Part shown: positions 1 through 34,421 of the stretch, in pieces
How positions within the stretch are numbered: position 1 is the first letter of the stretch
Layout: each line of letters starts with the position of its first letter
Origin: an uncultured virus (IMG/VR IMGVR_UViG_3300026196_000001)
Lineage: Duplodnaviria; Heunggongvirae; Uroviricota; Caudoviricetes
Direction: 5' to 3' (one strand)
IMG/VR virus record: IMGVR_UViG_3300026196_000001
DNA: 64,000 nt
Position numbers and translations under genes: made by a program
Notes under the pieces: generated by a model
What the model was told of the DNA's origin: nothing
The model's input: only the letters and a program-made list of their open reading frames with translations
The model's database searches: none

Positions 1-1107
1 CCTGGCGAGTGCTTCAGGCTCTTCGGCTATGCCGGGACCGGGAAGTCCACGATCGCCAAGCTCTTCCCGACGATCGCACCTGGGCGGGTGCTTTATGCTG
101 CCTACACCGGCAAGGCCGCTCACGTGCTGACCAGGAAGGGATGCCCTGCCACCACCATCCACCGCCTGATCTACAAGCCACGTGAGCGGGGATCCTACCA
201 CCTGCGCAAGCTGGAGGAGGGCTTGACTGTCGCCCTGGAAGCAGGGGACGGCAGGAAGGTCCGCAAGCTGGAGAACCTCATACGCCTGGAGAAGGAGAAA
301 CTCAAGTCCCCCACGTGGGACCGCAACGACCACTCGGAGCTACAGGAGGCGTCACTGCTGGTCCTCGACGAGGTCTCAATGGTCGGGCAGCAGCTCGGCC
401 GCGACCTCCTGTCCTACGGCACTCCAGTCCTCGCCCTCGGCGACCCTGGGCAGTTGCCGCCGATCGGATCCGTCGGCGGGTTTTTCACCGACCACGAGCC
501 CAACGCCATGCTGACCGAGGTGCACCGGCAGGAGAAGGGCAGCGACGTGCTCGACCTCGCCACCAGCGTGCGCAAGGGGAACAGCCTCTCCCTCGGCCCC
601 TGCGTCGTGCGCAAGGGGACCACGAAGATCAGCGAGCTGGCGTCCTACGATCAGGTCCTGGTGGGCCGGAACAAGACGCGCAAGATCCTCAACACGCAGA
701 TCCGCCGTCACCTCGGGCTCTCTGGGCTGCCCAAGCCAGGGGATAAGCTGGTGTGCCTGCGCAACAACCACGACCTGGGGATCATGAACGGTTCCCAGTG
801 GACCGTGGCCGACAGCACCGAGTTGGGCAACGACCAGATCGCCCTGGAGCTGCGGGACGACGACAACACGAAGGTGGACGTCATCTCGTGGACCCAGCTG
901 TTCGAGAACCGCGAGGCCCCCTACCACAACCAGCGCGACGCCGAGCTGTTCGACTACGGCTACGCCATGACGGTGCACAAGGCCCAGGGCTCGCAGTGGG
1001 ACCGGGTCTACGTCGTCGACGAGAGCGCATCATTCAACAAGGACCGCAGCCGGTGGCTCTACACCGCCATCACGCGGGCCGCAGAAGAGGTGAGGATCAG
1101 CCTATGA
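1..1107 (+). CDS. RecD/Dda-like SF1B helicase (5' truncated)
   Basis: Frame open from base 1; Walker A GYAGTGKS, DEVSM, GDPGQLPP, YAMTVHKAQGSQW, LYTAITRA. Confidence 0.93.
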   Translation, partial: PGECFRLFGYAGTGKSTIAKLFPTIAPGRVLYAAYTGKAAHVLTRKGCPATTIHRLIYKPRERGSYHLRKLEEGLTVALEAGDGRKVRKLENLIRLEKEKLKSPTWDRNDHSELQEASLLVLDEVSMVGQQLGRDLLSYGTPVLALGDPGQLPPIGSVGGFFTDHEPNAMLTEVHRQEKGSDVLDLATSVRKGNSLSLGPCVVRKGTTKISELASYDQVLVGRNKTRKILNTQIRRHLGLSGLPKPGDKLVCLRNNHDLGIMNGSQWTVADSTELGNDQIALELRDDDNTKVDVISWTQLFENREAPYHNQRDAELFDYGYAMTVHKAQGSQWDRVYVVDESASFNKDRSRWLYTAITRAAEEVRISL

Positions 1108-2789
1108 TTGGCCCGAAGACCGAGTTCGCAAAGAACCTGACCCAGGACCGACTGTGCCAGCCCACCGAGGGCTTCGCCGCCTCCATGGGCAGGATCGCCA
1201 CAGCACTCGCGCCGGACATGCACAGCCGTGTGCAGCTGCACGAGGCCCTGCTCAACCAGCGCTTTATCCCTGGCGAGCGCATCCAGCGCTACCTCGGAGT
1301 CAGGGACGACAACATCGCCCTGAGTGGTGTGATGAGCGGAGAGGTCTTCGACAACTTCGGCTCAGCCCTGGATCGGGCAGAGCAGGCCGCAGAGATCTTC
1401 CGTGCCGGAGGTCGAGTGGGGATCGACTTCACCGAGCTGCGCCCAAGAGGGGACCGGATCTTCCGCGGTGGGAACCGCTCCGCCGGGCCCGTGTCGATCA
1501 TGTCCTTCTTCAGTGCGGTGCGCCAGTGCTTCAGCAACGTGGAGCCCGCGAACGGCGCGTTGACGGCGACCCTACGCATCGACCACCCAGACATCATGGA
1601 GTTCATCCTCGCCAAGCAGAACGTCCACGGGTGCGACGCCTTCCGGACCGTGGTCGGCGTGACCGACGAGTTCATGACCGCGCTGGCCAACGGTAAGAAG
1701 TTCGACCTCCGCTGGGGCGGGCACGTCTACTCGACCGTGGACCCGGCCGAGATCTGGGAAATGCTCATGCAGAGCGTCTGGGCGTGGTCCGAGCCACAGG
1801 TCCTGTTCCTCGACACTGTGAACCGCCGGAACAGCCTCGGCTACAAGGAGAACATCACCGCCCTGAGCCCGGTGGGGGAGCAGCCGATCGCGGCGTTCGG
1901 GTCGTCCGTCCTGGGCAACCTGAACCTCACCAAGTATCTCTGCGTCGACAACACGGAGTTCGACTACTACGCCTTCGAGCGTGACATCCACGTCGCCGTG
2001 CGCGCGCTGGATTGCGCGCTGGACGTGATCCACCACCCAACCGACATCCACCGACTGGTCAAGGACCGGAAGCGCCCGATCGGGCTGGGGGTCACTGGTC
2101 TCGCGAACACCATCGAGTCGCTCGGAGCGCCCTACGGCTCGCAGGAGTTCCTCACGTGGACGGTGAGCCTGCTGTCGTTCCTGACGAACAACGCCTACCG
2201 CGCCTCGATCGAGCTGTCCCGAGAGCTTGGGCCGTTCGACGACCTGAACCGCGAGCTGTTCCTGAAGCCCGGCACGTTCGCAGCAGGGCTGCCGGAGGAC
2301 ATCCGACATGGGATCATGCGCCACGGGATCCGCAACAGCCGCCTGACCTGCATCTACCCCTGCTCCCTCACGAGCCTCGCCGCGGACAACGTCTCCCAGG
2401 GCATCGAGCCCGTCACAGACATCATGTCCAGGCGCGTCGTGAACACGCCGCAGGGCCCGCTGCGCGTGGACGTGCCCGACTACGGACAGCTCTTCCTGGG
2501 GACCACACCGAAGGTCCTGGCGGACTGCACGCCGGAGGACCACATGGAGGTGTTCCTGGCCGCGTCTCGCAACGTGGACGGCGGCGTCACGAAGAGCATC
2601 GTGGTCACCCCCGACACGGACTGGTGTGACTTCCAAGCGATATTCGTTCGGGCCTGGGAGGGAGGCGCAAAGAACTGCGCAGTCTACCAGACCGAATCCA
2701 GACGGTTCGGCATCCTGCAACGCCCCGAGGATGCTGCCGCGTGCTACGTAGACCCAAAGAAGCCCGGGAGGGCAGACGACGATGAGTGA
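1104..2789 (+). CDS. Class II (NrdJ-like) ribonucleotide reductase homolog with catalytic residues substituted
   Basis: ATGA overlap with helicase; LRPRG, GPVS, DHPDI.EFI, VTDEFM, IGLGVTG, GIRNS, SQGIEP collinear with phage NrdJ; TNPCGE site reads LSPVGE. Confidence 0.9.
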   Translation: MIGPKTEFAKNLTQDRLCQPTEGFAASMGRIATALAPDMHSRVQLHEALLNQRFIPGERIQRYLGVRDDNIALSGVMSGEVFDNFGSALDRAEQAAEIFRAGGRVGIDFTELRPRGDRIFRGGNRSAGPVSIMSFFSAVRQCFSNVEPANGALTATLRIDHPDIMEFILAKQNVHGCDAFRTVVGVTDEFMTALANGKKFDLRWGGHVYSTVDPAEIWEMLMQSVWAWSEPQVLFLDTVNRRNSLGYKENITALSPVGEQPIAAFGSSVLGNLNLTKYLCVDNTEFDYYAFERDIHVAVRALDCALDVIHHPTDIHRLVKDRKRPIGLGVTGLANTIESLGAPYGSQEFLTWTVSLLSFLTNNAYRASIELSRELGPFDDLNRELFLKPGTFAAGLPEDIRHGIMRHGIRNSRLTCIYPCSLTSLAADNVSQGIEPVTDIMSRRVVNTPQGPLRVDVPDYGQLFLGTTPKVLADCTPEDHMEVFLAASRNVDGGVTKSIVVTPDTDWCDFQAIFVRAWEGGAKNCAVYQTESRRFGILQRPEDAAACYVDPKKPGRADDDE

Positions 2790-3021
2790 AGAGACCCCGC
2801 CGATCATCAAGAGCCAGATGCGCAAGCCATGCGGCTGCATCATCACCGAGCTATCCAACGAGACCACGCAGATGTCCCCATGCGTCCCCTGCGGGATGAT
2901 GGAGGCCGCCCGCGCCCTCGCCAGCGTCGGGCAGATCCTCGCCGCTGTCGCCACCCGGATGCGGGTGGAGCGCGACAGCACGGACATCGACGTGGCCGTG
3001 AAGAAGAGCCTGGAGTCCTGA
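2782..3021 (+). CDS. Hypothetical protein, Cys motifs (PCGC, CxxC)
   Basis: Tiles between neighbours with overlapping start/stop. Confidence 0.7.
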   Translation: MSEETPPIIKSQMRKPCGCIITELSNETTQMSPCVPCGMMEAARALASVGQILAAVATRMRVERDSTDIDVAVKKSLES

Positions 3022-3845
3022 TGGACCTATTCGAGTTCGCGAACGAGCGCGAAGGTGTGCGCCTCATGAGGAAGATCGGGGTCCCCGAGCCGTGGTCCGA
3101 GGACCGCCGCCTCCAGCTCTACCACTTCACGAACATCTTCCGCGAGGACGACCCCACCTCGCAGTGGATCTACGACAACCTGCTCTACGAGGTGCGCTAC
3201 AACCCGGAGCACCTGTTCCGGAACGCCCTGGTCGGGCGTCTGTTCAACAACGTCGTCCCGCTGGAGCGTATCAAGCACATGATGCTGTGCGGCTGGGACG
3301 AGGATGAGATGTTCGATGTCCTTCGTCGTCGCCCAGGAGACCTCCACCCCAGCTGGCGTTTCAGCGGTCACTACCGCGCCCGACTGAAGGCAGGCACCAC
3401 TCGACTGGAGCAGGTCGCTCTGGCAGTGCGGCACGCCGACTCGAAGCAGGTGTGGCGGGTCACCCACTCCTCCACAAAAACCGCTCACTGGGCGATCTGC
3501 CAGCTTCCCCTAGGCGGCCCGCTCGTGGCGAACGAGATCGTCGCGGACCTGCAACGGTTCCCGAGCTTCTTCTGTGGTCAGCCCGACTGCGCCGTCCCCG
3601 AGCGCCACATCATGCGGGGGCTCGGTATCTGGGCTGGCAAGGGCCGGATCTCGCACGAGAAACTCTTCAAGGCACACCAGAAGCTGCGGGGTATACTTGA
3701 GGAGTCGCGCGACCGCTGGGACTACCCCGACCGGCCGTGGACTCTATCCACCGCAGCCCGAGCCGCGCTGCTCTACGGCCGCTACACCGACGACAACTAC
3801 AGGACCCTCCGCAGGGGCCTGAGAAAGGAGAGGATCGCAAGATGA
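3021..3845 (+). CDS. aGPT-Pplase1 / 5-hmdU DNA kinase helical-domain family protein (divergent)
   Basis: N-terminal F..ER....R..G.P.PWSED..LQ.YHFTNIFREDD signature; RLFN; EIVADL. Confidence 0.75.
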   Translation: MDLFEFANEREGVRLMRKIGVPEPWSEDRRLQLYHFTNIFREDDPTSQWIYDNLLYEVRYNPEHLFRNALVGRLFNNVVPLERIKHMMLCGWDEDEMFDVLRRRPGDLHPSWRFSGHYRARLKAGTTRLEQVALAVRHADSKQVWRVTHSSTKTAHWAICQLPLGGPLVANEIVADLQRFPSFFCGQPDCAVPERHIMRGLGIWAGKGRISHEKLFKAHQKLRGILEESRDRWDYPDRPWTLSTAARAALLYGRYTDDNYRTLRRGLRKERIAR

Positions 3846-4066
3846 GACGAATCGGAAACATGCCCGCGGATCGGGTCAAGTATCTGCTCAGGCGTCACAG
3901 CGCCCGTGCTGGCTTTCGGAAGTCCGGACCCGGCGTCCTGGTCAAGCTGCGCGACGCACTGCACAACATGACGCAGGAGCAGCGCGAGATCGCCCTGTCC
4001 GAGGGCTGGGATCGCGGCTTGCTCTACCGCGCCAAGGCAAGTGGCAAGCTGGGGGTGCGTCGATGA
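3842..4066 (+). CDS. Hypothetical basic protein
   Basis: ATGA overlap, upstream GGAGAGG. Confidence 0.65.
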   Translation: MRRIGNMPADRVKYLLRRHSARAGFRKSGPGVLVKLRDALHNMTQEQREIALSEGWDRGLLYRAKASGKLGVRR

Positions 4067-4208
4067 TCGTCGTCGCGAAATACCGCAAGCGGTCCAACGG
4101 AGGCCGCACGCTCACCTACTACAGGGATGTCCTGCTGTTCGGCTTCATCCTCATCCACCTCCTGGCCCGCAAGGGGCACAAGGCACTGCACGCGCGCAGG
4201 AGGCAGCG

Positions 4209-4661
4209 ATGAGCATGGACCGACCCCAGCTGCTGGAGCGACTGCGCAGCGACGGCCGCTTCCCTGACATGCTCAGCGTCGACGGGTGCGTCCGCTTGGA
4301 GACCAGAACCCCGCTCATCGCTGCGTCCTTCTACATCTATCCGCACCACGTGGTGATGGAGACGGCGGTAGACCGCAAGCACCCACAGGTGGTGTCGTTC
4401 TCCGACATGGACAAGCTCCTGAACCTGTGCGCGGATGACGGTCGGGCCTACCTCTACGTCGCATCCGGCTTCCCCGGCGTGGACTGCAACGGCACCAACG
4501 CCTGTGTGCTGGCGACCAGCTTCGCGGAAGCTGAGGCTGCCTTCCGGAAGGCCATCAACGAGAGCCGATACCTGCCGGGGATCAAGGACGGTGTGGTTCT
4601 CCCGATCCGCCGGATGGCACTTGGCGAGGTGGCGATCACCAACGAGGGCTACCTCAGCTAG
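4209..4661 (+). CDS. Hypothetical protein
   Basis: GGAGG RBS before ATG (MSMDRPQ...). Confidence 0.65.
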   Translation: MSMDRPQLLERLRSDGRFPDMLSVDGCVRLETRTPLIAASFYIYPHHVVMETAVDRKHPQVVSFSDMDKLLNLCADDGRAYLYVASGFPGVDCNGTNACVLATSFAEAEAAFRKAINESRYLPGIKDGVVLPIRRMALGEVAITNEGYLS

Positions 4662-4666
4662 TCTGT

Positions 4667-6679
4667 ATGCAGCTACCTTCCTTCTCACCCAAGATCTCGT
4701 GGACGGCCCCTGCTGTCCACACTCTCCCGTCGTGGGCAGACGCCAAGCGGCTGTGCATTGACGTCGAGACCAAGGACCCTCACCTCAAGGCCATGGGCCC
4801 GGGGGTGCGGACCGACGGCTACGTCATCGGGATTGGCGTCGCGATCGAGGACGGCCCGAAGTTCTACCTGCCGATCCGTCACGAAGGTGGCGGAAACCTC
4901 GACGAGGGCCACGTCTGGTCCTACTTGCGCGACAACGCCAAGGCCTTCAGGGGCACCGTGGTCCACGCCAACGGGCAATACGACCACGACTACCTGCTGG
5001 AGAACGACGTCGACCTGCTCCACTGCCGATGGTTCGATGTCCAGCTGGCCGACCCTTGCATCTACGAGCTGCACGACCGCTACAGCCTGGAACACATCGC
5101 GGAGCGCTTCGGTGTGCCCGGCAAGGACGAGACGCTGCTCCGCCACTGGGCCTCCGTCTACGGCATCAACCCGAAGTCTGGCATGTTCCGCCTCCCCGCC
5201 GGTGCCGTTGGTCCCTACGCCGAGCAGGACGTCGCGCTGCCCCTGGCCCTCGCGCGGATGCAGGAGGCCAAGATCAAGGAGCTTGGCCTGGAGAGGGTCT
5301 TCAAGCTGGAGTCAGAGTTGCAGCCGGTCCTGCTGAAGATGCGCCGCCGCGGCGTGGCCGTGAACCTCGATCGGCTGTCCGTGGTCCGCGAGATGGCGCA
5401 GGCCAGGGAGCGTGAGGTCCTGAATGAGATCACCCGTCGCACAGGGATCGGCCTCGGCCCGTCAGACGTCAACGCCAGCGCCTCCTGGGCACAGGTCCTG
5501 AAGAACATAGGCATCGAGGTTCCGCGCACGAAGCAGGGGAATCCGAGCGTGACGAAGGACCTGCTCAAGAGCATCAACCACCCCGTCGCCGATCTGATCC
5601 AGGAGGCCAAGCGCTACAACAAGCTCTACGGCACCTTCTGCTCCTCGGCCGAGCGGTTCACGGTCAACGGCCGGATCCACTGCACATTCAACCAGATGCG
5701 CACCAGCAAGGACGACGGCAGCGACGAAGAGAACGGCGCGAAGTATGGTCGCCTGTCGTGCGTGAACCCGAACCTTCAGCAGCAGCCCAGCCCGGACAAG
5801 GACCCGATCATCGGCAAGGCGATCCGCGACGTGTTCATCCCGGACGAGGGCGGCCAGTGGGCGTGCTTCGACTACAGCCAGCAGGAGCCCAGGTGGACCG
5901 TCCACTATGCAGAGCTGATCGGCGCGCGCGGGGCGAAGGCCGCCGCGGATATGTATCGCACCAACCCGCGCACCGACTACCACGGCATGGTTGCCACCAT
6001 GATCAACCCGAACTGGCCCAGCCTGGATGCCAAGAGCAAGAAGTCCCAGCGGTCCCAGTTCAAGGAGATCTCCCTCGGCAAAGCCTACGGGATGGGAGGA
6101 GCGAAGCTGTGCAGGCGGCTGCAACTGCCCACCAAGACCATCGTGCGCTACCAGAACCGCTGGATCCAGGGTGGCACACCGGAGGCCATGGACGCTCTCC
6201 GGGCAGGTGGCTTCGCGGTGGAGGTGGCCGGGGATGAGGGCTCGGAGGTGCTCCGGAAGTTCGACCGAGGCGTCCCCTACATCTCGGAGCTGGAGCTGCT
6301 CACCGAGCGCAACGCCATCAAGCGCGGCTACATCCGCACGGCCGGTGGTCGGCACTGCCACTTCCCGCGCCTCGCGAAGCCGAAGCATGTGAAGCGCCAG
6401 AATCTGATGACTGCGTTTGACTGGGTGCACAAGGCACTGAACCGCCTGATCCAGGGCAGCTCGGGCGACCAGATGAAGCAGGCCATGATCGACATCGACC
6501 GAGAGAACTTCCCACTACAACTCCAGGTCCACGACGAGGCGGACATGACGGTCTTCGACAGGCAGACCCTGCTCGACGTGCGCGATGTCATGCTGGACGC
6601 TGCCGAGTGCAGTGTGCCGCACCTCGTCGACGTGGAGACGGGCCCGAGCTGGGGCAGCTGCAAGGACGTAGAGCTATGA
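4667..6679 (+). CDS. polA: Family A DNA polymerase with 3'-5' exonuclease
   Basis: Exo DVE/NGQYD/YAEQD; GRLSCVNPNLQQ; motif A DYSQQEPR; motif B R...K....G..YG; motif C VHDE. Confidence 0.96.
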   Translation: MQLPSFSPKISWTAPAVHTLPSWADAKRLCIDVETKDPHLKAMGPGVRTDGYVIGIGVAIEDGPKFYLPIRHEGGGNLDEGHVWSYLRDNAKAFRGTVVHANGQYDHDYLLENDVDLLHCRWFDVQLADPCIYELHDRYSLEHIAERFGVPGKDETLLRHWASVYGINPKSGMFRLPAGAVGPYAEQDVALPLALARMQEAKIKELGLERVFKLESELQPVLLKMRRRGVAVNLDRLSVVREMAQAREREVLNEITRRTGIGLGPSDVNASASWAQVLKNIGIEVPRTKQGNPSVTKDLLKSINHPVADLIQEAKRYNKLYGTFCSSAERFTVNGRIHCTFNQMRTSKDDGSDEENGAKYGRLSCVNPNLQQQPSPDKDPIIGKAIRDVFIPDEGGQWACFDYSQQEPRWTVHYAELIGARGAKAAADMYRTNPRTDYHGMVATMINPNWPSLDAKSKKSQRSQFKEISLGKAYGMGGAKLCRRLQLPTKTIVRYQNRWIQGGTPEAMDALRAGGFAVEVAGDEGSEVLRKFDRGVPYISELELLTERNAIKRGYIRTAGGRHCHFPRLAKPKHVKRQNLMTAFDWVHKALNRLIQGSSGDQMKQAMIDIDRENFPLQLQVHDEADMTVFDRQTLLDVRDVMLDAAECSVPHLVDVETGPSWGSCKDVEL

Positions 6680-7584
6680 GCTACCACGCCGACACGTTCG
6701 TGCTCACGCCCGACGGGTGGAAGCGCATCAGCGATGTCACCTACGACGACCGCGTTGCAGAGATGCACGACGGGGAGCTGGTGTTCTCGCAGCCGGTCGA
6801 CATCAGCAGTCGCAACTTCAGCGGGCAGCTCATCAACGTCGAGGCCCGCAACTACGGGTTCACGGTCACTCCAGAGCACGGCGTGCCCGCGCAGAACCGC
6901 AAGACCGGGGACGAGAGCATCGTCCGGGCCGACGACATGCACACAACCAAGAACCACCTGCTGCATGTCTCTGCTCCGCTTGCGCCTCGCGACCACGAGA
7001 TCCACGACCCAGACTTCGCCCGCATCGCCGGGATGCTGCGGTCCAACCTTTTGCGGATCACCCGCCGCCAGATGACCGTGCGGATCCTACTGTCGACGCT
7101 GCGTCCCTACCTGATCTCGCTGATGGACAAAGCGGGCGTCCACTACGTGCAGGACGATGCCCGGTTCTTGCTCGCCAAGCACCCGCGCCTGATGACCTAC
7201 TTCACGTTCCACGGGAGGCTCCGTCGGTCCACCCTCCTTGCTCTCGACGCCGAGAGCAAGCGCATGTTTGTCCAAGGGGCCATCAGCTGGAAGGCCCGCA
7301 TCCGCCCGCCCTCCTTCCCCACCTACATCACCCGTTTCCCGCCCGAAGACGTGGCCGTGGTCCACGAGCTGTGCGCCCTCGCTGGGCTCTCCAGCACGGA
7401 AAGGGCCGCCGGTGACGGGTGGCTGGAGGTAAAAGTCCGACCGGAACAGAAAAATCTCCTCCCTCCCCGCAAAAATGTGTTACCCTACTCAGGTAGGGTC
7501 TACAACCTCTTCACGCCCAGTGGGACCCTTCTCACCAGAAACCTCACCCGACAAGCCCTCATAGGAGACGGAAGCCATGTCTGA
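6676..7584 (+). CDS. Free-standing intein-derived (Hint + degenerate LAGLIDADG) protein
   Basis: Block A SYHADTFVLTPDGWK, block B TVTPEH, block F/G YSGRVYNLFTPSGTLLTR...IGD; no exteins. Confidence 0.8.
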   Translation: MSYHADTFVLTPDGWKRISDVTYDDRVAEMHDGELVFSQPVDISSRNFSGQLINVEARNYGFTVTPEHGVPAQNRKTGDESIVRADDMHTTKNHLLHVSAPLAPRDHEIHDPDFARIAGMLRSNLLRITRRQMTVRILLSTLRPYLISLMDKAGVHYVQDDARFLLAKHPRLMTYFTFHGRLRRSTLLALDAESKRMFVQGAISWKARIRPPSFPTYITRFPPEDVAVVHELCALAGLSSTERAAGDGWLEVKVRPEQKNLLPPRKNVLPYSGRVYNLFTPSGTLLTRNLTRQALIGDGSHV

Positions 7585-8110
7585 CCTGATGCTCGACCTC
7601 GAAACCCTCGGCAACGGCAACGACGCCGCGATCGTCTCGATCGGTGCCTGCGTATTCAACCCCTTCGGCGGGGAGATCACGGAGCTGTTCTACCGGACGA
7701 TCGACCTGGAGATCTCATCCCACCCAGGGGACCTGGATCCAGGCACCGTGCTCTGGTGGCTCAAGCAGGACGAGGCGGCCCGCAAGGCGCTGACCGACCC
7801 GAAGCAGCACGAGACGCTCCCGCTCGGTGAGGCACTGAACCAGCTCAGGGGCTTCATAATCGCCAATGATGCCAACCGCCTCTGGAGCAACGGCCCGACG
7901 TTCGATGAGGTCATCATCCGCAGTGCGTTCCGCCGCTACGAAATGGAGTTCCCGATCCCCTTCTTTGGCAGCCGCTGTGTGCGCACGGTCAGGGGCCTGC
8001 CCAACGCACCGAAGGCGAAGCCTGTGCATGGGACCGCGCACAACGCGCTCGACGACGCCGTCTCCCAGGCCAAGCACGTGCAGGAGATCTACAGGAGTCT
8101 GGTGCGATGA
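7577..8110 (+). CDS. DEDDh 3'-5' exonuclease (DUF5051-like)
   Basis: MLDLETLG, WSNGPTFD, HNALDDA. Confidence 0.9.
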   Translation: MSDLMLDLETLGNGNDAAIVSIGACVFNPFGGEITELFYRTIDLEISSHPGDLDPGTVLWWLKQDEAARKALTDPKQHETLPLGEALNQLRGFIIANDANRLWSNGPTFDEVIIRSAFRRYEMEFPIPFFGSRCVRTVRGLPNAPKAKPVHGTAHNALDDAVSQAKHVQEIYRSLVR

Positions 8111-8409
8111 GTGAGAGGAAAAATGTCGTAGCTGTCAAGTTCTACCACGCCGGGTTCGGGGTGGTCCGCGTGGTCCAGGAGGACTACACCGGTGCCCGCA
8201 ACCTCGTGGTGCAGATCCAGCACAAGAGCATCATGAATGAGCCTCACTGGGTCAACGCCACTAGGGCTGAAGCTGAGGCCATCATGCCTATAGCCTTCAA
8301 CCATCTTGCGGCGGAACTAGCTGCGACTAAGTCTAGGCTGGAGGACACCCAAAAGAAGCTATCCAACGCACTGCTACCAACAGCAACCGACATGAGGACG
8401 ACGACATGA
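8107..8409 (+). CDS. Hypothetical protein (small paralog family)
   Basis: ATGA overlap; resembles 8406 and 16498 ORFs. Confidence 0.7.
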   Translation: MSERKNVVAVKFYHAGFGVVRVVQEDYTGARNLVVQIQHKSIMNEPHWVNATRAEAEAIMPIAFNHLAAELAATKSRLEDTQKKLSNALLPTATDMRTTT

Positions 8410-8645
8410 TCAAATACCCACGAGTCATCATCAAGCTGGATTGCCTCCATGACGGACCTGTCCGCATAGTCCAACGCACCGAAGGAGTCCCATCCATGGA
8501 TGTAGAGATCATGACGAAGGACTCCATGGGGATGCTTCGCTGGGTCGATGTCGACATGGACTCACCACTGAGATCCCAGGCGTTCCGGCTGGCCCTAATG
8601 CAACTTGCTGACTCCCTGCACACTGCGCGAGGTGGTGAGCTGTGA
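8406..8645 (+). CDS. Hypothetical protein (small paralog family)
   Basis: ATGA overlap; VE....DSMG...W motif. Confidence 0.7.
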   Translation: MIKYPRVIIKLDCLHDGPVRIVQRTEGVPSMDVEIMTKDSMGMLRWVDVDMDSPLRSQAFRLALMQLADSLHTARGGEL

Positions 8646-8893
8646 GGCGACTGGTCCGATTCCTGCTGTTCCCGGTGCCCTATCTGCTGTTCCCGCTGAT
8701 GGCGCTCTACGTCATCTTCGTGCAGCCGTTCACCATCACCATCCCAGCAGCCAAGCAACTTCGTCAGGCATACCCACAGCTCCGGTCGCGACCGCTCTGG
8801 AGGTGCGTCCTACGTGGAATGCACTACCACTTCAAGTGGCTGATCGACGCCACGCGCCAGTGGCCGTCTACCTGGAAGAGGAGCCTCAACTAG
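8642..8893 (+). CDS. Small membrane protein
   Basis: N-terminal hydrophobic segment; GTGA overlap. Confidence 0.65.
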   Translation: MRRLVRFLLFPVPYLLFPLMALYVIFVQPFTITIPAAKQLRQAYPQLRSRPLWRCVLRGMHYHFKWLIDATRQWPSTWKRSLN

Positions 8894-9298
8894 GTGAGTG
8901 GAGAGGCGAGACTACGGAGGGAGGTGGTGCGACTTCTGAAGTCACTCGACGCCCAGCCGGTGGAGAACATCGTGCGCGCCGGGACCCCGGACGTCGAGTA
9001 TCATGGAGGGTGGATCGAGGTCAAGCGCACGAAGTCCTGGCCTGCACGGCCTGACACTCCTGTGAAGCTGGAGCACGACCTCACTCCCGGCCAGCGCCGA
9101 TGGATCCGCAGACGTGAGCGCGTGGGCGGCACCGTCTGGGTCCTGGTGCAGATCGACAGAGCCTACCTCCTGCTCAAGGGCGGCGACGCTGCCCGCTGGA
9201 TCGGAGAGGCAAACAGACGAGAGCTGATCGCGCACGCCCACAAGGTGTGCCTTGGGCTCGCAGAACTGAGAAGGAACCTGCTTGCATGGGTGAGTTGA
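8894..9298 (+). CDS. PD-(D/E)xK nuclease, VRR-NUC/Holliday junction resolvase-like
   Basis: GTPDV...WIEVK, Q..W....G motif. Confidence 0.8.
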   Translation: MSGEARLRREVVRLLKSLDAQPVENIVRAGTPDVEYHGGWIEVKRTKSWPARPDTPVKLEHDLTPGQRRWIRRRERVGGTVWVLVQIDRAYLLLKGGDAARWIGEANRRELIAHAHKVCLGLAELRRNLLAWVS

Positions 9299-11643
9299 AC
9301 CCCAACTACGACGCATCTCTTGACTTTCTGGAATGGGCCCAGCCGGACGGGCCGTGGGTCCTCGTGGCGATTGCCGTGGACAAGACCGGCATCACGACGC
9401 GGACGTTCTCGGACCGCGAGACTGCGAAGGGCTGGCTCGACGAGGTCGGCAGCACCAACAACATCTACTGGACCGTCAACCGCACCATCCGGCCCATGGC
9501 CAGCAAGCCCGGCCGGAAGGACATCTCGAGCCTGGACTTCCTCCACGTGGACATCGACCCCCGGGTCGGGCACGACCTGGAGGACGAGCAGGCCCTGATC
9601 CTGGAGCGGCTGGAGGACTTCCAGCCCCCACCCAGCGCGGTCGTCTACAGCGGCGGCGGCTATCAGGCCTTCTGGAGGCTCCAGGATCCCCTCAAAATCG
9701 ACGGCGAGGAAGACCTATACGAAGACGCAAAGCGCTACAACTTGCAACTGGAGCGCCTCCTGGGCGGCGACAGCTGCCACAACGTGGACCGCATCATGCG
9801 GCTGCCCGGAACGATCAACTGGCCGGACGAGAAGAAGAAGGCCAAGGGCCGGATCGAGGCCCTGGCCACGGTCATCGGGCAGCTGACCAGCCTGGACTAC
9901 CCGCTCGGCGGCTTCACCCCCGCCCCGCAGCTCCAGAACACCCAGGGCTTCACCAGCAAGACCGTCAAGATCGGCGGCAACGTCCCGCGGACCGAGGACC
10001 TCAGCACCCTGCCGGTGTCGGACCTGTGCAAGGTCGTCATCGCCCAAGGCAAGGACCCGGACGACCCGGACCGCTGGGAGAGCCGGTCGGAGCCCCTGTT
10101 CTGGGTGTGCTGCGAGATGATCCGCGCCGAGATGTCCGACGAGCAGATCTTCGGCATCATCACCGACCCCTGCTGGGAGATCAGCAGCTCGATCGTCGAG
10201 AAGGGCAGCAACGCCCAGACCTACGCGGAGCGCCAGATCGAGCGCGCGCGCGAGGAGGCGGTGAACCCCTGGCTGCGCAAGCTGAACGACGACCACGCCG
10301 TGGCCATCGTCAGCGGCAAGACGCGCGTCATCTCCGAGGCCGAGGACATCCTGGAGGGTGGACGTAGGCGCACGCGCCTGCTCTACCAGTCCTTCGATGA
10401 CTTCCGCAACTTCTACAGCAACCAGTTCATCGAGTTCCTCGGAGGCAAGGACAACGAGACCCTGATCCGCATCCCGGTCGGGAAGTGGTGGCTCGCGCAC
10501 ACCGAGCGACGCACCTACAAGGGCGTCGTCTTCAGCCCTGGCAAGACAGTCAGCGGCTACTACAACCTGTGGAAGGGCTTCGGCGTCGAGGCCATCCCCG
10601 GCGACTGCGGACTGTTCCTCGATCACATCCGAGAGAATATCTGCGACGACAGCCCGGAGGTCTACGACTACCTGATCCGCTGGATGGCGACCGCCGTGCA
10701 GTTCCCTGCTCAGCCTGGGCACGTGGCCGTGGTCATGCGCGGACGGCAGGGCACCGGCAAGGGCGCATTCGCGAACACGTTCGGCAAGCTGTGGGGCAGG
10801 CACTTCCTGGCTGTGCGCGACAGCGAGCACCTGTTCGGGAAGTTCAACGCCCACCTCAAGGACTGCGTCGTCCTGTTCGCCGACGAGGCGTTCTGGGCAG
10901 GTGACAAGAAGCGCGAGGGGATGCTCAAGTCCATGGTGACCGAAGAGCAGATGATGTCCGAGCGCAAGGGCTACGACGCCGAGCTGTCGGCCAACTACAT
11001 CCACCTGATCATGGCGTCGAACGAGGGCTGGGTGGTCCCGGCCGGTGTCGACGACCGCCGCTTCCTCGTGCTGGACGTGAAGGACACGAGGATGCAGGAC
11101 GTGCGCTACTTCGCCGCGATCACCCAGCAGATGGAGAACGGCGGCTACGAGGCGCTGCTCCACCACCTGATGTCGATCGACATCTCGGACTTCAACATCC
11201 GCAAGGTTCCACAGACCGGAGCGCTGCGCGAGCAGAAGATGCTCAGCCTCGCGCCCGAGCAGTCGTGGTGGCACGCCAAGCTGGTCGACGGCCGCGTGTT
11301 CGATGACCAGCCGGTCTGGCCCGACTACATCTTCTGCACCCAGCTCACCTACGACTTCGTCGAGGCCCAGCGGACGTGGGCGCGCAACGCGCACAGTTCA
11401 CAGGTCAAGCTGGGGCTCTTCCTGCGCAAAGCCATCCCGATGATGGTGAAGGAGCAGCTGTGGGGGGAGCACCCGGTCGTGCAGGTCAACGGCGACACGA
11501 AGATGGTCGAGCGTCCCTACATCTACCGCCTCCCGCCGCTGAAGGCGTGTCGCGAGTTCTGGGACAAGACCTTCGGCGGGCCCTATGTGTGGCCCGACAT
11601 TCCGGAGGTCCTCGAAGAAGAACCCACGGAGGAGCCGTTCTAA
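9286..11643 (+). CDS. Primase (RepB-like) fused to SF3/DUF5906 helicase
   Basis: HVDID, SGGGYQAFW, RIMRLPGT; Walker A GRQGTGKG, FADEA, MASN, DDRRF. Confidence 0.9.
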   Translation: MGELNPNYDASLDFLEWAQPDGPWVLVAIAVDKTGITTRTFSDRETAKGWLDEVGSTNNIYWTVNRTIRPMASKPGRKDISSLDFLHVDIDPRVGHDLEDEQALILERLEDFQPPPSAVVYSGGGYQAFWRLQDPLKIDGEEDLYEDAKRYNLQLERLLGGDSCHNVDRIMRLPGTINWPDEKKKAKGRIEALATVIGQLTSLDYPLGGFTPAPQLQNTQGFTSKTVKIGGNVPRTEDLSTLPVSDLCKVVIAQGKDPDDPDRWESRSEPLFWVCCEMIRAEMSDEQIFGIITDPCWEISSSIVEKGSNAQTYAERQIERAREEAVNPWLRKLNDDHAVAIVSGKTRVISEAEDILEGGRRRTRLLYQSFDDFRNFYSNQFIEFLGGKDNETLIRIPVGKWWLAHTERRTYKGVVFSPGKTVSGYYNLWKGFGVEAIPGDCGLFLDHIRENICDDSPEVYDYLIRWMATAVQFPAQPGHVAVVMRGRQGTGKGAFANTFGKLWGRHFLAVRDSEHLFGKFNAHLKDCVVLFADEAFWAGDKKREGMLKSMVTEEQMMSERKGYDAELSANYIHLIMASNEGWVVPAGVDDRRFLVLDVKDTRMQDVRYFAAITQQMENGGYEALLHHLMSIDISDFNIRKVPQTGALREQKMLSLAPEQSWWHAKLVDGRVFDDQPVWPDYIFCTQLTYDFVEAQRTWARNAHSSQVKLGLFLRKAIPMMVKEQLWGEHPVVQVNGDTKMVERPYIYRLPPLKACREFWDKTFGGPYVWPDIPEVLEEEPTEEPF

Positions 11644-12584: not shown

Positions 12585-13073
12585 ATGCACGAGAAGACCA
12601 AAGAGGCGCTGGAGAGTATCGGCGCATCGTTTGCCTGCACGACCGGAAAGATCGGGAGGGCAGACCGCTTCATGCGGAAGATCCAGGAGAACCTGCCGAG
12701 CGAGAAGTCGCGCAGCGAGCTGGGGCTGAAGTCCTACTACACGTTCGAGAACGACTTCGGGGAGCCGACCATCGTGCTGTGGCAGGCTTCCGAGATCGCC
12801 GAGATCGGCCCGTTCATGCGCGCAGTGCGCTATGCCGGGTTCCGTCGATCCAGCAAGACGGAGGACCCGGCCCACAGGAACATCGACTGGATCTACGCTA
12901 TCGACGACGACGGGGAGGAGATCACCGCCCGTGTCCGGATCTACCTCGAACAGTCCTCAGAGGCGAAGTGCCGTTACGTCGAGACCGGAAAGAAGGAGGT
13001 CCCCGTCATGACGCTGCTGTGCGGCGACGAGCTGGAGGCCTACGAGAACGCGCACGAAGAGACCACAACCTAG
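12585..13073 (+). CDS. Hypothetical protein
   Basis: AAGGAG RBS before ATG. Confidence 0.75.
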   Translation: MHEKTKEALESIGASFACTTGKIGRADRFMRKIQENLPSEKSRSELGLKSYYTFENDFGEPTIVLWQASEIAEIGPFMRAVRYAGFRRSSKTEDPAHRNIDWIYAIDDDGEEITARVRIYLEQSSEAKCRYVETGKKEVPVMTLLCGDELEAYENAHEETTT

Positions 13074-13079
13074 CCGATC

Positions 13080-13436
13080 ATGATCTCCACCTACATGCTC
13101 ATCGCTGTCGCAATCATCTTCGTCGTGGCCCTGGTAGTCATCTACTTCGTGTCAGGGCACAGCTCGAACATCACCATCGAAGAGAGGGACGACGAGGACG
13201 TCCTGTTCGTCGGTGGCCCGTCCGGGCCTGGGCAGCTCCACACGATCCCGAAGGGCTCCGACGCCTGGAGCATCGACGGCCACATCCTGTTCGTCCGGGG
13301 GCGGAAGTGGGTGCTGCTGGGCAGGGGAGTCTACGAGATCGTCACGTTCTTCTACCCGGAAGGGTTGAGCGAGGACGACCACTTCCTGAAGGTCCTGGAA
13401 TACCGAGGAATCCCCTACGAGGTCATCGACTCATGA
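13080..13436 (+). CDS. Membrane-anchored hypothetical protein
   Basis: N-terminal TM helix. Confidence 0.7.
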   Translation: MISTYMLIAVAIIFVVALVVIYFVSGHSSNITIEERDDEDVLFVGGPSGPGQLHTIPKGSDAWSIDGHILFVRGRKWVLLGRGVYEIVTFFYPEGLSEDDHFLKVLEYRGIPYEVIDS

Positions 13437-13888
13437 GCCACACCAACAAGGACACCAACCCGAAGGACGCTGTCGGCTCGAAGAAGGTGCCGATGTCACG
13501 CGTCCCAGTCGCCCCGCTCCTGGAGGTTGCTGCCTCCTTGCACGAAGGGCACGTCAAGGGCTACCGCGGCCACAACTGGCGCATCGCCGGAGTCCGGGCC
13601 TCGATCTACTACGACGCCGCCCACAGGCACCTGATGGCGTGGTGGGAGGGCCAGGACATCGACCCCGACAGTGGGCTCTCACACATCTCGAAGGCCATCG
13701 CTGGGCTCTTCGTCCTGCGCGACGCCATGATCCACGACAACTGGACCGACGACCGTCCGCCCAAGACTCCGGAGGAGTTCCTGGCCGAGATCCAAGCGGC
13801 CATGGACGAAGTCAATCGCCGCTACCCCAACCCCGAAGAGGGGCCATACACGGAGGTGAACGATGGTAAATCCGCTCAGGGTCGGTGA
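13433..13888 (+). CDS. dATP/dGTP diphosphohydrolase domain protein (DUF5664)
   Basis: TNPKDAVGSKK, G..KGY..HNWR, YYDAAHRHL.AWW.G.D.DPDSGLSH. Confidence 0.88.
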   Translation: MSHTNKDTNPKDAVGSKKVPMSRVPVAPLLEVAASLHEGHVKGYRGHNWRIAGVRASIYYDAAHRHLMAWWEGQDIDPDSGLSHISKAIAGLFVLRDAMIHDNWTDDRPPKTPEEFLAEIQAAMDEVNRRYPNPEEGPYTEVNDGKSAQGR

Positions 13889-17466: not shown

Positions 17467-18767
17467 GCAAGAAGAAACTCGATGAGTTCCTGGCTGCACC
17501 TGAGCAGCTGAAGAAAAACAAGACCGAGCTGAAGAAGGCGCGCGACCGCAAGGCGCGAGAATCGGCTCGAAGGGCGCGAGAGTCAGCCCACAAGAGCACC
17601 GACGCCCCGACCATCGAGGACATGCTCGCCGACATCGTGCGGGTAGCAGAGGACGAGCAGACCAACCCCTGGGCAGAGTTCCGCGCGATCAGCCCACGCC
17701 GCTACGAGCTGTATGGGCACTACCCCATGGAGTTCCTGGTCAAGCAGTTCGGCCAGTTCAACCACGCCCTGGAGGTGGCGGGCCTCCGCGACCAGCCGGG
17801 CACCCGCCTGCTGAAGGCCAACCGAGCCCGAGAGAGCAGGCGCGAGCACGCGGCGCGATACATGGAGCGCTACGTCGCCCCCTATGTGGCCCGCCGTGAC
17901 GAGATCCGCGACCTCGTGGGCCGGTCCTACCGGATCCTGTCGATCAGCGACACGCACTCGACCCTGATGGACCCCTTCGTCTGGCTCAGCTTCCTGTCCG
18001 CGGTCCGCGAGCTTCAGCCCGACGCGGTGCTGATGAACGGCGACACCCTGGACCTCGTGAGCCTGGGCCGTCACCCCAAGGTCCCTGGCCACGTGCCCGA
18101 CCTCCAGCTGGAGCTGGACTTCAAGCGCGAGATGTTCCGGCAGGTCCGGAAGGTCCACCATGGAGCCCTGTTCGACTGCGCCGGGAACCACGATCTGGCG
18201 GTCCGGCTGAGCAGCCACCTGACCCAGGTCGATCCAGCCCTCTCCACGCTGCGCTGCTTGCGCGTGGACGAGCTTCTGGGGCTGGGGCGACACGATGTCC
18301 AGCTCTTCCACGGAGGCAGCCTGATGTCCCCTGCGGGCTCTGAGAACGAGAAGGACGGCACCCTGCTGTTCGGCTTCTACCGGATACACCACGGGACCAA
18401 GCTGGGGCAGTCCCCGGCCCTGGCCGAGCTGCGCGCCGCCGGTCGCTCCGGGCAATCCGGCCACGTCCACCGGGCCTCCCTAGCCTACGGCACCACCGAG
18501 CGGGACGAGGGCATGAGCTGGATGAGCACGCCCATGGGGGCCCGTCACGAGGTCGGCAAGTTCTACATCCGTGGGACAACTGCTGGCTGGCAGCGCGGCT
18601 TCGGCTACTGCGAGCTGTTCCCGGATGGATCCGTCCACCAGTATCCGTGCGTGGTCGGCGGGGAGCGCCTCACCTGCGAGGGCTTCTCCTGGACGCGCCC
18701 AGACGATCTTCTCGACCCTGACCCCATGACCAACTGGCTCCTTGACAAGAGGTATCAACTGAAATGA
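17463..18767 (+). CDS. Calcineurin-like metallophosphoesterase with N-terminal HNH-associated-repeat-like domain
   Basis: SDTH, GD.LD, GNHD, HHG, GHVHR; N-terminal FGQFNHALEVAGL. Confidence 0.88.
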   Translation: MSKKKLDEFLAAPEQLKKNKTELKKARDRKARESARRARESAHKSTDAPTIEDMLADIVRVAEDEQTNPWAEFRAISPRRYELYGHYPMEFLVKQFGQFNHALEVAGLRDQPGTRLLKANRARESRREHAARYMERYVAPYVARRDEIRDLVGRSYRILSISDTHSTLMDPFVWLSFLSAVRELQPDAVLMNGDTLDLVSLGRHPKVPGHVPDLQLELDFKREMFRQVRKVHHGALFDCAGNHDLAVRLSSHLTQVDPALSTLRCLRVDELLGLGRHDVQLFHGGSLMSPAGSENEKDGTLLFGFYRIHHGTKLGQSPALAELRAAGRSGQSGHVHRASLAYGTTERDEGMSWMSTPMGARHEVGKFYIRGTTAGWQRGFGYCELFPDGSVHQYPCVVGGERLTCEGFSWTRPDDLLDPDPMTNWLLDKRYQLK

Positions 18768-19321
18768 GCGACTTCCTCAACAACGGGATCTGCCCGAAGA
18801 CACGGCGGATCTTCCTCTATGGTGACGTCGAGGAAGAGGCCGTAGGCAAGGCCATCCGCGGCATCTACGCCATGCTCGCGACGGACAAGAACGCACCCAT
18901 CACGATCTTCGTCAGCAGCTACGGCGGGTCGCTGGACGACGCCATGGCCCTGGTCGACGTGGTGCGCTTAGCCTCCTGCCCGATCCGGACAGTCGCGCTC
19001 GGGAAGTGCATGAGCGCTGCCCCGCTGATCGTCGCCGCCGGAACCGGGGGCCGCTACGCCATGCCCAACACCATGTGGATGCTGCACGATGTGTCGCAGA
19101 ACGTGGGCGAGGGCAGCCCCGCCTTCCTGTCCAGCATGGCCAAGGCCGGGAAGAGCATCGTGGCCCGCTACGCCTCCCTGCTCGGGCAGTGGACGGATCG
19201 CGAGGAGTCATTCTGGAAGGGCATCTTCCGGTCGAAGTCCGACCGGTTCTTCACGTCCGACGACGCCCTCGACTGGGGCATCGTGGACGAGGTCTTCGAG
19301 GAAGAGGAGGAGGAGGAGTGA
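18764..19321 (+). CDS. clpP: ClpP-family serine protease
   Basis: RRIFLYG, SYGG, GKCMSAA (Ser), MLHD (His), DRFF (Asp), ALDWGIVDEV. Confidence 0.9.
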   Translation: MSDFLNNGICPKTRRIFLYGDVEEEAVGKAIRGIYAMLATDKNAPITIFVSSYGGSLDDAMALVDVVRLASCPIRTVALGKCMSAAPLIVAAGTGGRYAMPNTMWMLHDVSQNVGEGSPAFLSSMAKAGKSIVARYASLLGQWTDREESFWKGIFRSKSDRFFTSDDALDWGIVDEVFEEEEEEE

Positions 19322-33784: not shown

Positions 33785-34393
33785 TCACTCTGCGGCCGGA
33801 GCGGCGCGATCGTGGACAATGAGGCACTTCTCCCGCCAGCTGGCCTCCTTGTCGTAGCGCCCCTCCCGGATCCGCCGGACCTGGGCAAGGGTGATCCTGA
33901 ACCTGCGGGCCATGATCTCGTCGCTGACGGCCGTGTTCCGCTGGATGTAGCCGACGTAGGAGAGGCGCAGCTTCCCGTCCTTGAACACGAGGTCCTGCCA
34001 CTCTGGGCGGTAGAACCAGTCCAGGACGGTCCCCGGAGCCTTGCGCGTGGTCCAGAAGAGATTCTCCGCGCGGCAGTCCCCCCGGTTCCCGTTCCGCCAT
34101 CCGGGCACATGCCCCTCGGGCCGTGGTCCGACAAACGTCTCCAGGACCAGCTCGGCGACGCTCCACATCCTCATCTCGTTCCGCATGAGGTTCATGGGGT
34201 TGAGATTGATGGTCACGACCGGGTGTCCGTTGTTGAAGGCCCAGCGCAGCCGCTTCCCCACGCCCAAGGACCCTTTGATCATGGTCCGCTGGTCGTAGGG
34301 GTTGATGTGGCCGATGCCTTTGCCGATGCGGCGGACGTAGCCCCGGTCGGAGATGCAGTATCGGCTCTGCCTGATCTGTCGGTGTTGTTCCAT
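33785..34393 (-). CDS. NUMOD4/HNH homing-endonuclease-derived protein, nuclease motif degenerate
   Basis: Y.ISD.G.VR; LVLETFVGPRPEG...WRNGNRGDCRAENL.W; C-terminal HTH-like segment. Confidence 0.75.
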   Translation of the reverse strand: MEQHRQIRQSRYCISDRGYVRRIGKGIGHINPYDQRTMIKGSLGVGKRLRWAFNNGHPVVTINLNPMNLMRNEMRMWSVAELVLETFVGPRPEGHVPGWRNGNRGDCRAENLFWTTRKAPGTVLDWFYRPEWQDLVFKDGKLRLSYVGYIQRNTAVSDEIMARRFRITLAQVRRIREGRYDKEASWREKCLIVHDRAAPAAE

Positions 34394-34421
34394 GCCCTAT
34401 CATACCACAGCGGAGGGGCTG

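Follow-up and report, generated by a model that had tools for sequence, protein, structure and literature searches.

A homologue of NrdJ, the adenosylcobalamin (AdoCbl)-dependent class II ribonucleotide reductase (RNR), is encoded within a 64,000-nucleotide stretch of DNA from an uncultured virus of the Caudoviricetes (IMG/VR record IMGVR_UViG_3300026196_000001), the whole of which is referred to here as the window. When translated, positions 1104-2789 give a single open reading frame (ORF) of 561 codons plus a stop. As judged from its sequence, the deduced protein, P0001, is catalytically dead and probably a retained protein of the RNR fold with a putative non-enzymatic role. A preliminary description, made from the letters alone, had presented the ORF as intact, translationally coupled and normal in codon usage, and all three features were recovered. 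Indeed, the ATG at 1104 overlaps the stop codon of the upstream helicase gene (ATGA), with AGGA lying 7 nt upstream. The G+C content at third codon positions (GC3) is 0.88 and an index resembling the codon adaptation index (CAI-like) is 0.724, close to the values for PolA (0.89 and 0.731), and the codon statistics equal those of the PolA, portal and capsid genes.

The Pfam family of the RNR barrel, PF02867, matches residues 83-448 of P0001 with 215.4 bits (cut-off 23.9, E 1.8e-63), and comparison with PHROG returned phrog_84. Among solved structures, the best match in sequence is 1xje, the dimeric class II NrdJ of Thermotoga maritima (E 1.5e-37), whereas class I R1 chains match more weakly (E 1e-15 or worse). 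The nearest homologues in cultured phages are the annotated nrdJ or RNR products of YuA-, PaMx28-, PhiJL001- and RcRudolph-like siphoviruses, with 36-41% identity over 96-99% of the length. On the NCBIfam equivalog TIGR02504, P0001 scores 307.8 bits and stays under the cut-off of 399.95, as do its degenerate relatives P0124 and P0125 (313.0 and 288.5 bits), whereas the intact sisters P0002, P0003 and P0274 all exceed it with 514.6, 517.7 and 478.2 bits. Another NCBIfam profile, NF005401, gives P0001 257.6 bits for a cut-off of 906; searched against G001, a 31-kb fragment of the same phage that does not carry the RNR-like gene, and against 14 control genomes, this profile found nothing above its cut-off.

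The AlphaFold 2 (AF2) model of P0001 has a predicted local distance difference test (pLDDT) score of 90.9 and a predicted TM-score (pTM) of 0.91, loop 2 being the weakest segment of its core. A Foldseek search with this model returned 1xje_A as top match (E 1.2e-38, query TM-score (TMq) 0.83). The model indicates that the sequence is compatible with the NrdJ fold rather than that the protein is stable, and it says little about retention because the underlying alignment is made of intact enzymes. The features of the gene and of its immediate surroundings are collected in Table 1.

Table 1. Coordinates of the NrdJ-like gene, its altered motifs and the adjoining genes in the window
Feature	Position	Strand	Basis
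Dda/RecD-like helicase, truncated at position 1 of the window	1..1107	+	Pfam AAA_30, UvrD_C_2; phrog_325; same order in contigs L004 and L250
Shine-Dalgarno-like GAGGTGAGGA, then ATGA (helicase stop overlapping the RNR-like start)	1087..1107	+	Read from the sequence
NrdJ (class II RNR) homologue P0001, 561 amino acids (aa), predicted to be catalytically dead	1104..2789	+	PF02867 match, TIGR02504 score below cut-off, AF2 model
Codons S74-G75 in place of the family N-C; first redox Cys (T. maritima C134)	1323..1328	+	Family alignments, coordinates
Degenerate loop 2, S144 to T154	1533..1565	+	1xje alignment, family alignment; lowest core pLDDT, 66
Finger-loop remnant L254-S255-P256-V257-G258-E259 (family TNPCGE)	1863..1880	+	1xje and family alignments
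G266-S267-S268-V269-L270-G271 (family GACLLG); second redox Cys, C333 to S268	1899..1916	+	1xje and family alignments
Degenerate phosphate-binding loop C416-I-Y-P-C420-S-L-T (family S-I-A-P-T/C-G-T-I)	2349..2372	+	Family alignments
C-terminal tail: C547 kept, second tail Cys replaced by D558	2742..2777	+	Family alignments
Orphan Cys-rich ORF of 79 aa, CxC...CxxC	2782..3021	+	GC3 0.91 vs 0.52 for the competing frame
5-hydroxymethyldeoxyuridine (5-hmdU) DNA kinase-like gene, start revised from 2829 to 3021	3021..3845	+	Pfam HMUDK_hel, E 1.7e-16; codon-position G+C; N-termini in L004 and L250

Loss of the catalytic residues

Residues were mapped through a HMMER alignment of P0001 to 1xje and through family alignments of 17 and 118 sequences. 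The alignment to 1xje is free of gaps over query residues 80-176, and the numbering based on it is sound because K202 and Q203 of the T. maritima enzyme fall where the literature puts them (PMC3267527, in its accessible text).

The protein proved collinear with NrdJ, and every motif substitution listed in the preliminary description was found again in these alignments, including the disappearance of all three active-site cysteines, the canonical positions of which are occupied by G75, V257 and S268. The family motif NCFV, which holds the first redox cysteine, reads S74-G75-V76-M77. In the finger loop, N320 and C322 of T. maritima correspond to S255 and V257, with E324 retained as E259. In loop 2, GHRRGA has become EPANGA, the family RR being replaced by A149-N150 (RRGA reads A149-N150-G151-A152), and S144 and N145 stand at the positions of K202 and Q203, two loop-2 residues that are described for T. 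maritima NrdJ as linking effector and substrate (PMC3267527, accessible text). The APTGT of the phosphate loop reads Y418-P419-C420-S421-L422. The last barrel strand, which according to the available part of PMC9531940 lines the adenosyl pocket of class II RNRs, is altered at conserved residues (G524N, T527V). A single C-terminal cysteine was confirmed to remain (Table 1), and part of loop 1 is retained (R113, P114 and G116).

In every RNR characterised so far, the essential thiyl radical is described as residing on the finger-loop cysteine, and nucleotide reduction as being coupled to the oxidation of a conserved cysteine pair (PMC9531940, accessible text). Because all three active-site cysteines and more have been lost, P0001 is regarded as unable to perform radical ribonucleotide reduction, a conclusion well supported by the sequence comparison. 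Moreover, V257 at the thiyl-radical position is coded by GTG, three nucleotide changes away from either Cys codon, and therefore the loss of catalysis is not recent. That P0001 is a still-working RNR using other residues, or that its changes arose from misassembly or from an unusual genetic code, is highly improbable. Nothing beyond the intact ORF and fold speaks for such readings, whereas residues 19-141 and 178-279 contain no cysteine at all in a family where the thiyl cysteine is essential in every characterised member (same source). As for an artefact, the IMG/VR contig L001 is identical to the window over 12,467 bases, contigs of two soil sequencing runs show no difference within the gene, and the frame is open under translation table 11 with ordinary codon usage.

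Such losses are rare among homologues. In a first census, the full Cys-Asn-Cys-Glu-Cys pattern was present in 333 of 337 unique homologues, and in a second one, based on proteins of 450-660 aa and on ORFs cut from loci, in 463 of 475 unique sequences. The exceptions of the second census comprise four N-terminally cut sequences, one that carries Thr in place of the first Cys, which may reflect a shifted alignment, and four lineages that deviate, namely P0001, P0007/P0124, P0125 and the distant P0268. Only 48 of the 78 columns that are invariant in 115 homologues are kept by P0001. Of the columns conserved at 95% or more, it keeps 100 of 152, as against 151 in P0002 and 150 in P0003. On these sequence counts, the residue changes in P0001 are far beyond chance.

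Other homologues depart from the common pattern in their own way. P0268, a 633-aa NrdJ-type protein about 32% identical to P0001, reads S-N-R-D-S where the five catalytic residues would stand; NF005401 matches it best (445.5 bits, under the cut-off of 906), and it may mark a separate family of Cys-less RNR-like proteins. Many long homologues (P0126-P0272) match P0001 in two or three stretches, with breaks at query residues 253-258, where the thiyl-radical Cys would lie and where RNR inteins are classically inserted.

Relatives and gene neighbourhood

Homologues were sought among 5.8 billion proteins and 1.84 billion cluster representatives. P0001 belongs to a clade of six clusters at 90% identity (support 100/100), which a search with P0125 appears to complete. 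Three clusters are intact, namely P0002 (four members), P0003 and P0274, and three are degenerate, namely P0001, P0007/P0124 and P0125. The intact P0002 and P0003 are 85% identical to each other, whereas identities are 58.5% between P0124 and P0125, 48.9% between P0001 and P0124, and 46.8% between P0001 and P0125. Both P0124 and P0125 have lost the four loop-2 residues GHRR as well as 24 or 21 residues including the finger loop, and P0125 is additionally missing the second redox Cys and nine loop-1 residues while both its tail cysteines are kept. All these deletions are in frame, and P0124/P0007 and P0125 are still open over 485-529 aa. Scans of viral, metagenome and genome contigs with P0001 yielded only identical copies or relatives of at most 45% identity, and a contig scan with P0124 found nothing.

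The number of times that catalysis was lost in this clade depends on the position of P0001. In the best tree, of 15 rows, the three degenerate sequences group together (95/90) with P0001 beside P0124 (90/87). Support for P0001 with P0124 is only 56/90 in an 18-row tree without P0125, and a quick tree of 43 rows gives a Shimodaira-Hasegawa-like approximate likelihood ratio (SH-aLRT) of 96 for a shared dead ancestor of both. Approximately unbiased (AU) tests reject only the grouping of P0001 with the three intact sequences (p 0.0175); neither a P0124-P0125 pair (p 0.086) nor P0001 outside the other five (p 0.21) is rejected. The grouping of the degenerate sequences could stem from long-branch attraction or from parallel relaxation at the same sites. 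The loop deletions common to P0124 and P0125 and absent from P0001 argue for two losses of catalysis, whereas the AU tests and support values are compatible with a single loss as well as with two.

The window is a phage genome of 64% G+C, on which the terminase, the portal, the capsid, the tail tube and the tape measure are all encoded. The portal shares 40-52% identity with its counterparts in Shewanella phage S0112 and the Roseobacter RDJL phages, and both sequencing runs that hold the P0001 gene are soil metagenomes. Start and stop codons overlap on both sides of this gene. Downstream, the ATG of a 79-aa ORF overlaps its stop by 8 nt (ATGAGTGA), and the 3' end of that small ORF forms TGATG with the start of the kinase gene. 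The 79-aa ORF is a real frame because its GC3 far exceeds that of the frame first assigned to the kinase (Table 1). Since it is coding, the kinase start lies at 3021 and not at 2829, in agreement with the N-termini of the orthologues in the IMG/VR contigs L004 and L250. The small ORF has no Pfam or PHROG family, no usable match in the Atlas, and no counterpart between RNR and kinase in L004 or L250. The kinase gene is followed by PolA, a weak thymidylate-synthase-like ORF and an exonuclease.

The order helicase, RNR, hmdU kinase and PolA is common to the window, L004 and L250, and the RNRs of the latter two are intact, with NCF, NPCGE, GACLLG, RRGA, APTG and the C-terminal Cys pair. This shared order therefore makes P0001 a descendant of NrdJ in its original place rather than an additional paralogue. 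A search for a second RNR in all six frames of the window, in 1001 bases upstream (from L001) and in 1078 downstream (from L273) found none; it covered 66 kb of a genome of roughly 70 kb (the longest record with P0001 has 70,168 bases). Thioredoxin or glutaredoxin was sought among the small ORFs of the window with no family match, and a promoter and terminator scan of positions 1-9000 gave nothing above shuffled controls. The antisense ORF 1572-2987 and other shadow ORFs were considered as a source of constraint on the gene and ruled out, as none has a Pfam family; ORF 1572-2987 also puts the GC-rich codon position first, unlike the real genes of the window.

Some further features of the phage were recorded. 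The thymidylate-synthase-like ORF lies at 6607-7584 (+; phrog_85, E 5e-5), and an ORF at 12779-13888 (+), the first part of which is non-coding-like with a GC3 of 0.58, bears the N-terminal domain of dATP/dGTP diphosphohydrolases (PF18909) over residues 227-326. Together with the 5-hmdU kinase-like gene, they point to a modification of the DNA bases; no gene resembling PurZ was seen. A ClpP-like protease ORF (18764-19321, +; PF00574, E 2.1e-26) lies in the early/middle region, apart from the head genes. The large terminase gene (Terminase_6C, 34353-37061, +) includes an intein with a LAGLIDADG homing endonuclease (Pfam LAGLIDADG_3 and Intein_splicing). In two soil runs, single contigs join position 2863 to 8040 (5176 bases skipped) and 8222 to 10935 (2712 skipped). 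The shorter side of each joint holds only 21 letters, and these are probably chance matches or other organisms.

Retention or decay

The preliminary description had supposed that the fold is under selection. It is rather likely that P0001 has been kept as a folded protein, as suggested by the way in which its sequence has changed. Neutral evolution was simulated on the gene's own DNA, with substitutions only, under one mutation model (Hasegawa-Kishino-Yano (HKY), kappa 2, base frequencies of the window). At 0.2 changes per site, the amino acid divergence was 35%, which roughly equals the fraction of invariant residues lost, and 5 of 2000 replicates were stop-free; at 0.3 changes per site it reached 47%, the divergence from the sisters, and none of 2000 was. 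The length has hardly moved, with 561 aa in P0001 and 562 in the sisters. Only three gap events, all in frame, separate P0001 from P0002, whereas P0002 differs by six from either of the intact P0004 and P0005. The replacements are also conservative: when mismatches are scored with BLOSUM62, the mean comes to -0.29 for P0002 and -0.18 for P0003, within reach of intact-intact pairs (-0.01 to -0.26), whereas random mutation gives a mean of -0.72 (standard deviation 0.10, maximum -0.42, 300 replicates).

The losses are unevenly distributed along the protein. Among the columns conserved at 90% or more, P0001 keeps 111 of 157 in the scaffold as against 22 of 53 in six active-site blocks, made of the Cys1 strand, loop 2, the finger loop, the Cys2 strand, the phosphate loop and the SKTxN strand (Fisher p 2.4e-4). 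P0124 displays the same contrast, with 114/157 and 23/53, respectively. A classification by residue type, independent of the block limits, gives 29 of 40 Gly/Pro columns kept, 51 of 75 hydrophobic ones (67 of which stay hydrophobic), 52 of 89 polar ones and one of six Cys. Retention peaks in the second half of the barrel and its helical insert (34/41 over residues 276-410 and 13/15 over 426-490). It is not above average in helix A (5/11) and loop 1 (9/16), which form the dimer and effector site of NrdJ, and there is therefore no specific support for a surviving deoxynucleoside triphosphate (dNTP) effector site. The three degenerate lineages retain 92 of 208 conserved columns in common, and 25 columns are lost in every one of them, for 7.9 expected if the losses were independent.

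A functionless relic would be the opposite outcome, which we consider unlikely, although several observations lean towards it. In that case the reductase would no longer be needed and its gene would drift, the frame being open either by chance in GC-rich DNA or because stops and frameshifts would uncouple or polarise the downstream small ORF, hmdU kinase and PolA. The terminal branch of P0001 measures 1.4-2.4 substitutions per site, as compared with about 0.10 for P0002 and P0003, and is thus 13-24 times longer than those of its intact sisters, which could mean near-neutral evolution. P0001 has lost 77 of the 210 columns conserved at 90% or more, whereas P0002 has lost 13. In the scaffold itself 46 of 157 are lost (29%), far above P0002, and the constraint on P0001 is therefore weak. 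The Fisher p-value is weakened because the block limits were drawn after seeing the data, and the simulation ignores indels and relies on its single mutation model. P0001 is a single lineage: none of the 5.8 billion proteins or 1.84 billion representatives is an orthologue with its substitutions, the nearest being 52% identical, and the two soil runs, both of which may be its source, contain an identical gene with no variants. No RNA data set stands among the runs listed as containing the gene. The tight coupling to neighbours fits polarity, the progressive loop deletions of P0124 and P0125 can be read as erosion, and sequences without catalytic residues are removed as likely non-functional in one curation protocol for viral RNR data sets (PMC6370689, as far as its accessible text goes).

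All these points weigh against a retained protein, but drift and polarity account poorly for the rest. The frame stays open where neutral replicates almost never do, even with indels ignored. Selection against polarity alone would not hold the length at 561 vs 562 aa with three gap events, nor give replacements about 4 standard deviations more conservative than random, nor leave the scaffold better preserved than the active site. An insert of 1.7 kb with no use should be lost by in-frame deletion from a phage whose capacity is limited. The supposition of a selected fold thus finds indirect support in the open frame, the few in-frame indels, the conservative replacements, the better-kept scaffold and two more dead but open relatives, and is tempered by the strong acceleration of the branch.

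It is quite improbable that P0001 is a repurposed enzyme, in which the barrel would have acquired non-radical catalysis or the binding of a ligand such as nucleotides or intermediates of the adjoining hypermodified-thymidine pathway, perhaps via C416. The retained fold (AF2 model and 1xje match), E259, the kept part of loop 1 (R113, P114, G116) and the adjacent 5-hmdU DNA kinase-like gene would suit such a change, but the adjacency of RNR and kinase is ancestral, being found also in phages with intact NrdJ, and the accessible text of the main paper on thymidine hypermodification holds no mention of 'ribonucleotide reductase'. The cysteines of TCIYPC, which had been thought to be gained and to offer new chemistry, are only half new: C416 is, whereas the nearby C420 is inherited, since intact sisters read APCG, which weakens that proposal. 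Without orthologues, no newly conserved set of residues can be defined, and positions lost in common are replaced differently (G104 by R, N or E), which looks like relaxation and not like a new site.

The explanation that we favour, as reasonably likely, is that P0001 is a dead descendant of NrdJ, still in its place and kept as a folded protein in a non-catalytic role. The ORF is the positional orthologue of the phage's AdoCbl-dependent NrdJ and has lost the residues needed to reduce nucleotides, and the host would supply dNTPs in its stead. We infer that the protein is still made and that it would be maintained as a ten-stranded barrel under relaxed but real purifying selection. Its role would most likely depend on the scaffold, which could bind another protein or form a structural part of the module for replication and nucleotide metabolism. 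To serve as a scaffold or binding protein within this coupled module may be the most economical mechanism, and a decoy or inhibitor role, as in betaherpesvirus R1 homologues, would be equally allowed by the fast evolution. The preliminary description had put forward a sink for nucleotides or cobalamin, the poisoning of host NrdJ and a defence decoy as candidate roles.

A broader reading is offered tentatively, as a possibility short of being likely. A small clade of uncultured soil siphoviruses might have turned a B12-dependent RNR into a non-enzymatic protein kept by selection, with three of the six lineages, 47-59% identical to one another, lacking the catalytic loop. In phages, the dead barrel would be the first equivalent of the R1 pseudoenzymes of herpesviruses, and it might bind the coupled 79-aa Cys-rich protein, a component of the replication and nucleotide-supply complex, or something in the host, such as its own RNR or a defence sensor.

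Comparison with known systems

RNR genes rank among the auxiliary genes most often found in phages and serve widely as markers in viral ecology. The case of P0001 indicates that a phage can come to do without NrdJ catalysis and still carry the gene. If the dead NrdJ is truly kept by selection, the RNR barrel would have a second, non-catalytic use in phages, as in betaherpesviruses, and counts of 'RNR-encoding' viruses would overstate metabolic capacity. The protein would also give a concrete point of departure for finding a new interaction between phage and host or within the replisome. Full-text literature searches found no description of a catalytically dead RNR in a phage.

Among the closest known systems is the dimeric-type NrdJ of phages and bacteria, as in T. 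maritima (1xje) and Pseudomonas phages PaMx28 and YuA (gp07). P0001 shares with these proteins the barrel domain, the length and a collinear alignment; it is 36-41% identical to phage NrdJ, its predicted fold matches 1xje with a TM-score of 0.83, and its gene lies where L004 and L250 have an intact NrdJ. Unlike NrdJ, it is devoid of the thiyl Cys, the redox Cys pair, the finger-loop Asn, the loop-2 RR, the phosphate-loop motif and one tail Cys, and falls below the equivalog cut-off of TIGR02504. The NCBIfam entry NF005401 (PRK06948), 'ribonucleotide reductase-like protein', is a curated label for RNR-related proteins not named as enzymes. P0001 lies under the cut-off of this profile, and its clade is a separate one, of phages.

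Betaherpesviruses are already known to have inactive RNR large subunits, and the phage class II case is a viral variant of this theme. According to the accessible text of PMC11772975 and PMC5469499, the R1 homologues of these viruses (UL45 of human cytomegalovirus (HCMV), M45 of murine cytomegalovirus (MCMV) and R1 of human herpesvirus 6B (HHV-6B)) are inactive and repurposed to bind host signalling proteins. As in P0001, a viral homologue of the RNR large subunit has lost its activity at full length, and the virus relies, or in the phage would rely, on host dNTPs. The two do not share a common descent as pseudoenzymes, as herpesvirus R1 is a class I protein whereas P0001 belongs to class II NrdJ. 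Indeed, the herpesvirus proteins occur in animal viruses that have lost R2 and have demonstrated host partners, whereas P0001 derives from a cofactor-dependent, single-subunit enzyme of a phage, and its non-enzymatic role is putative.

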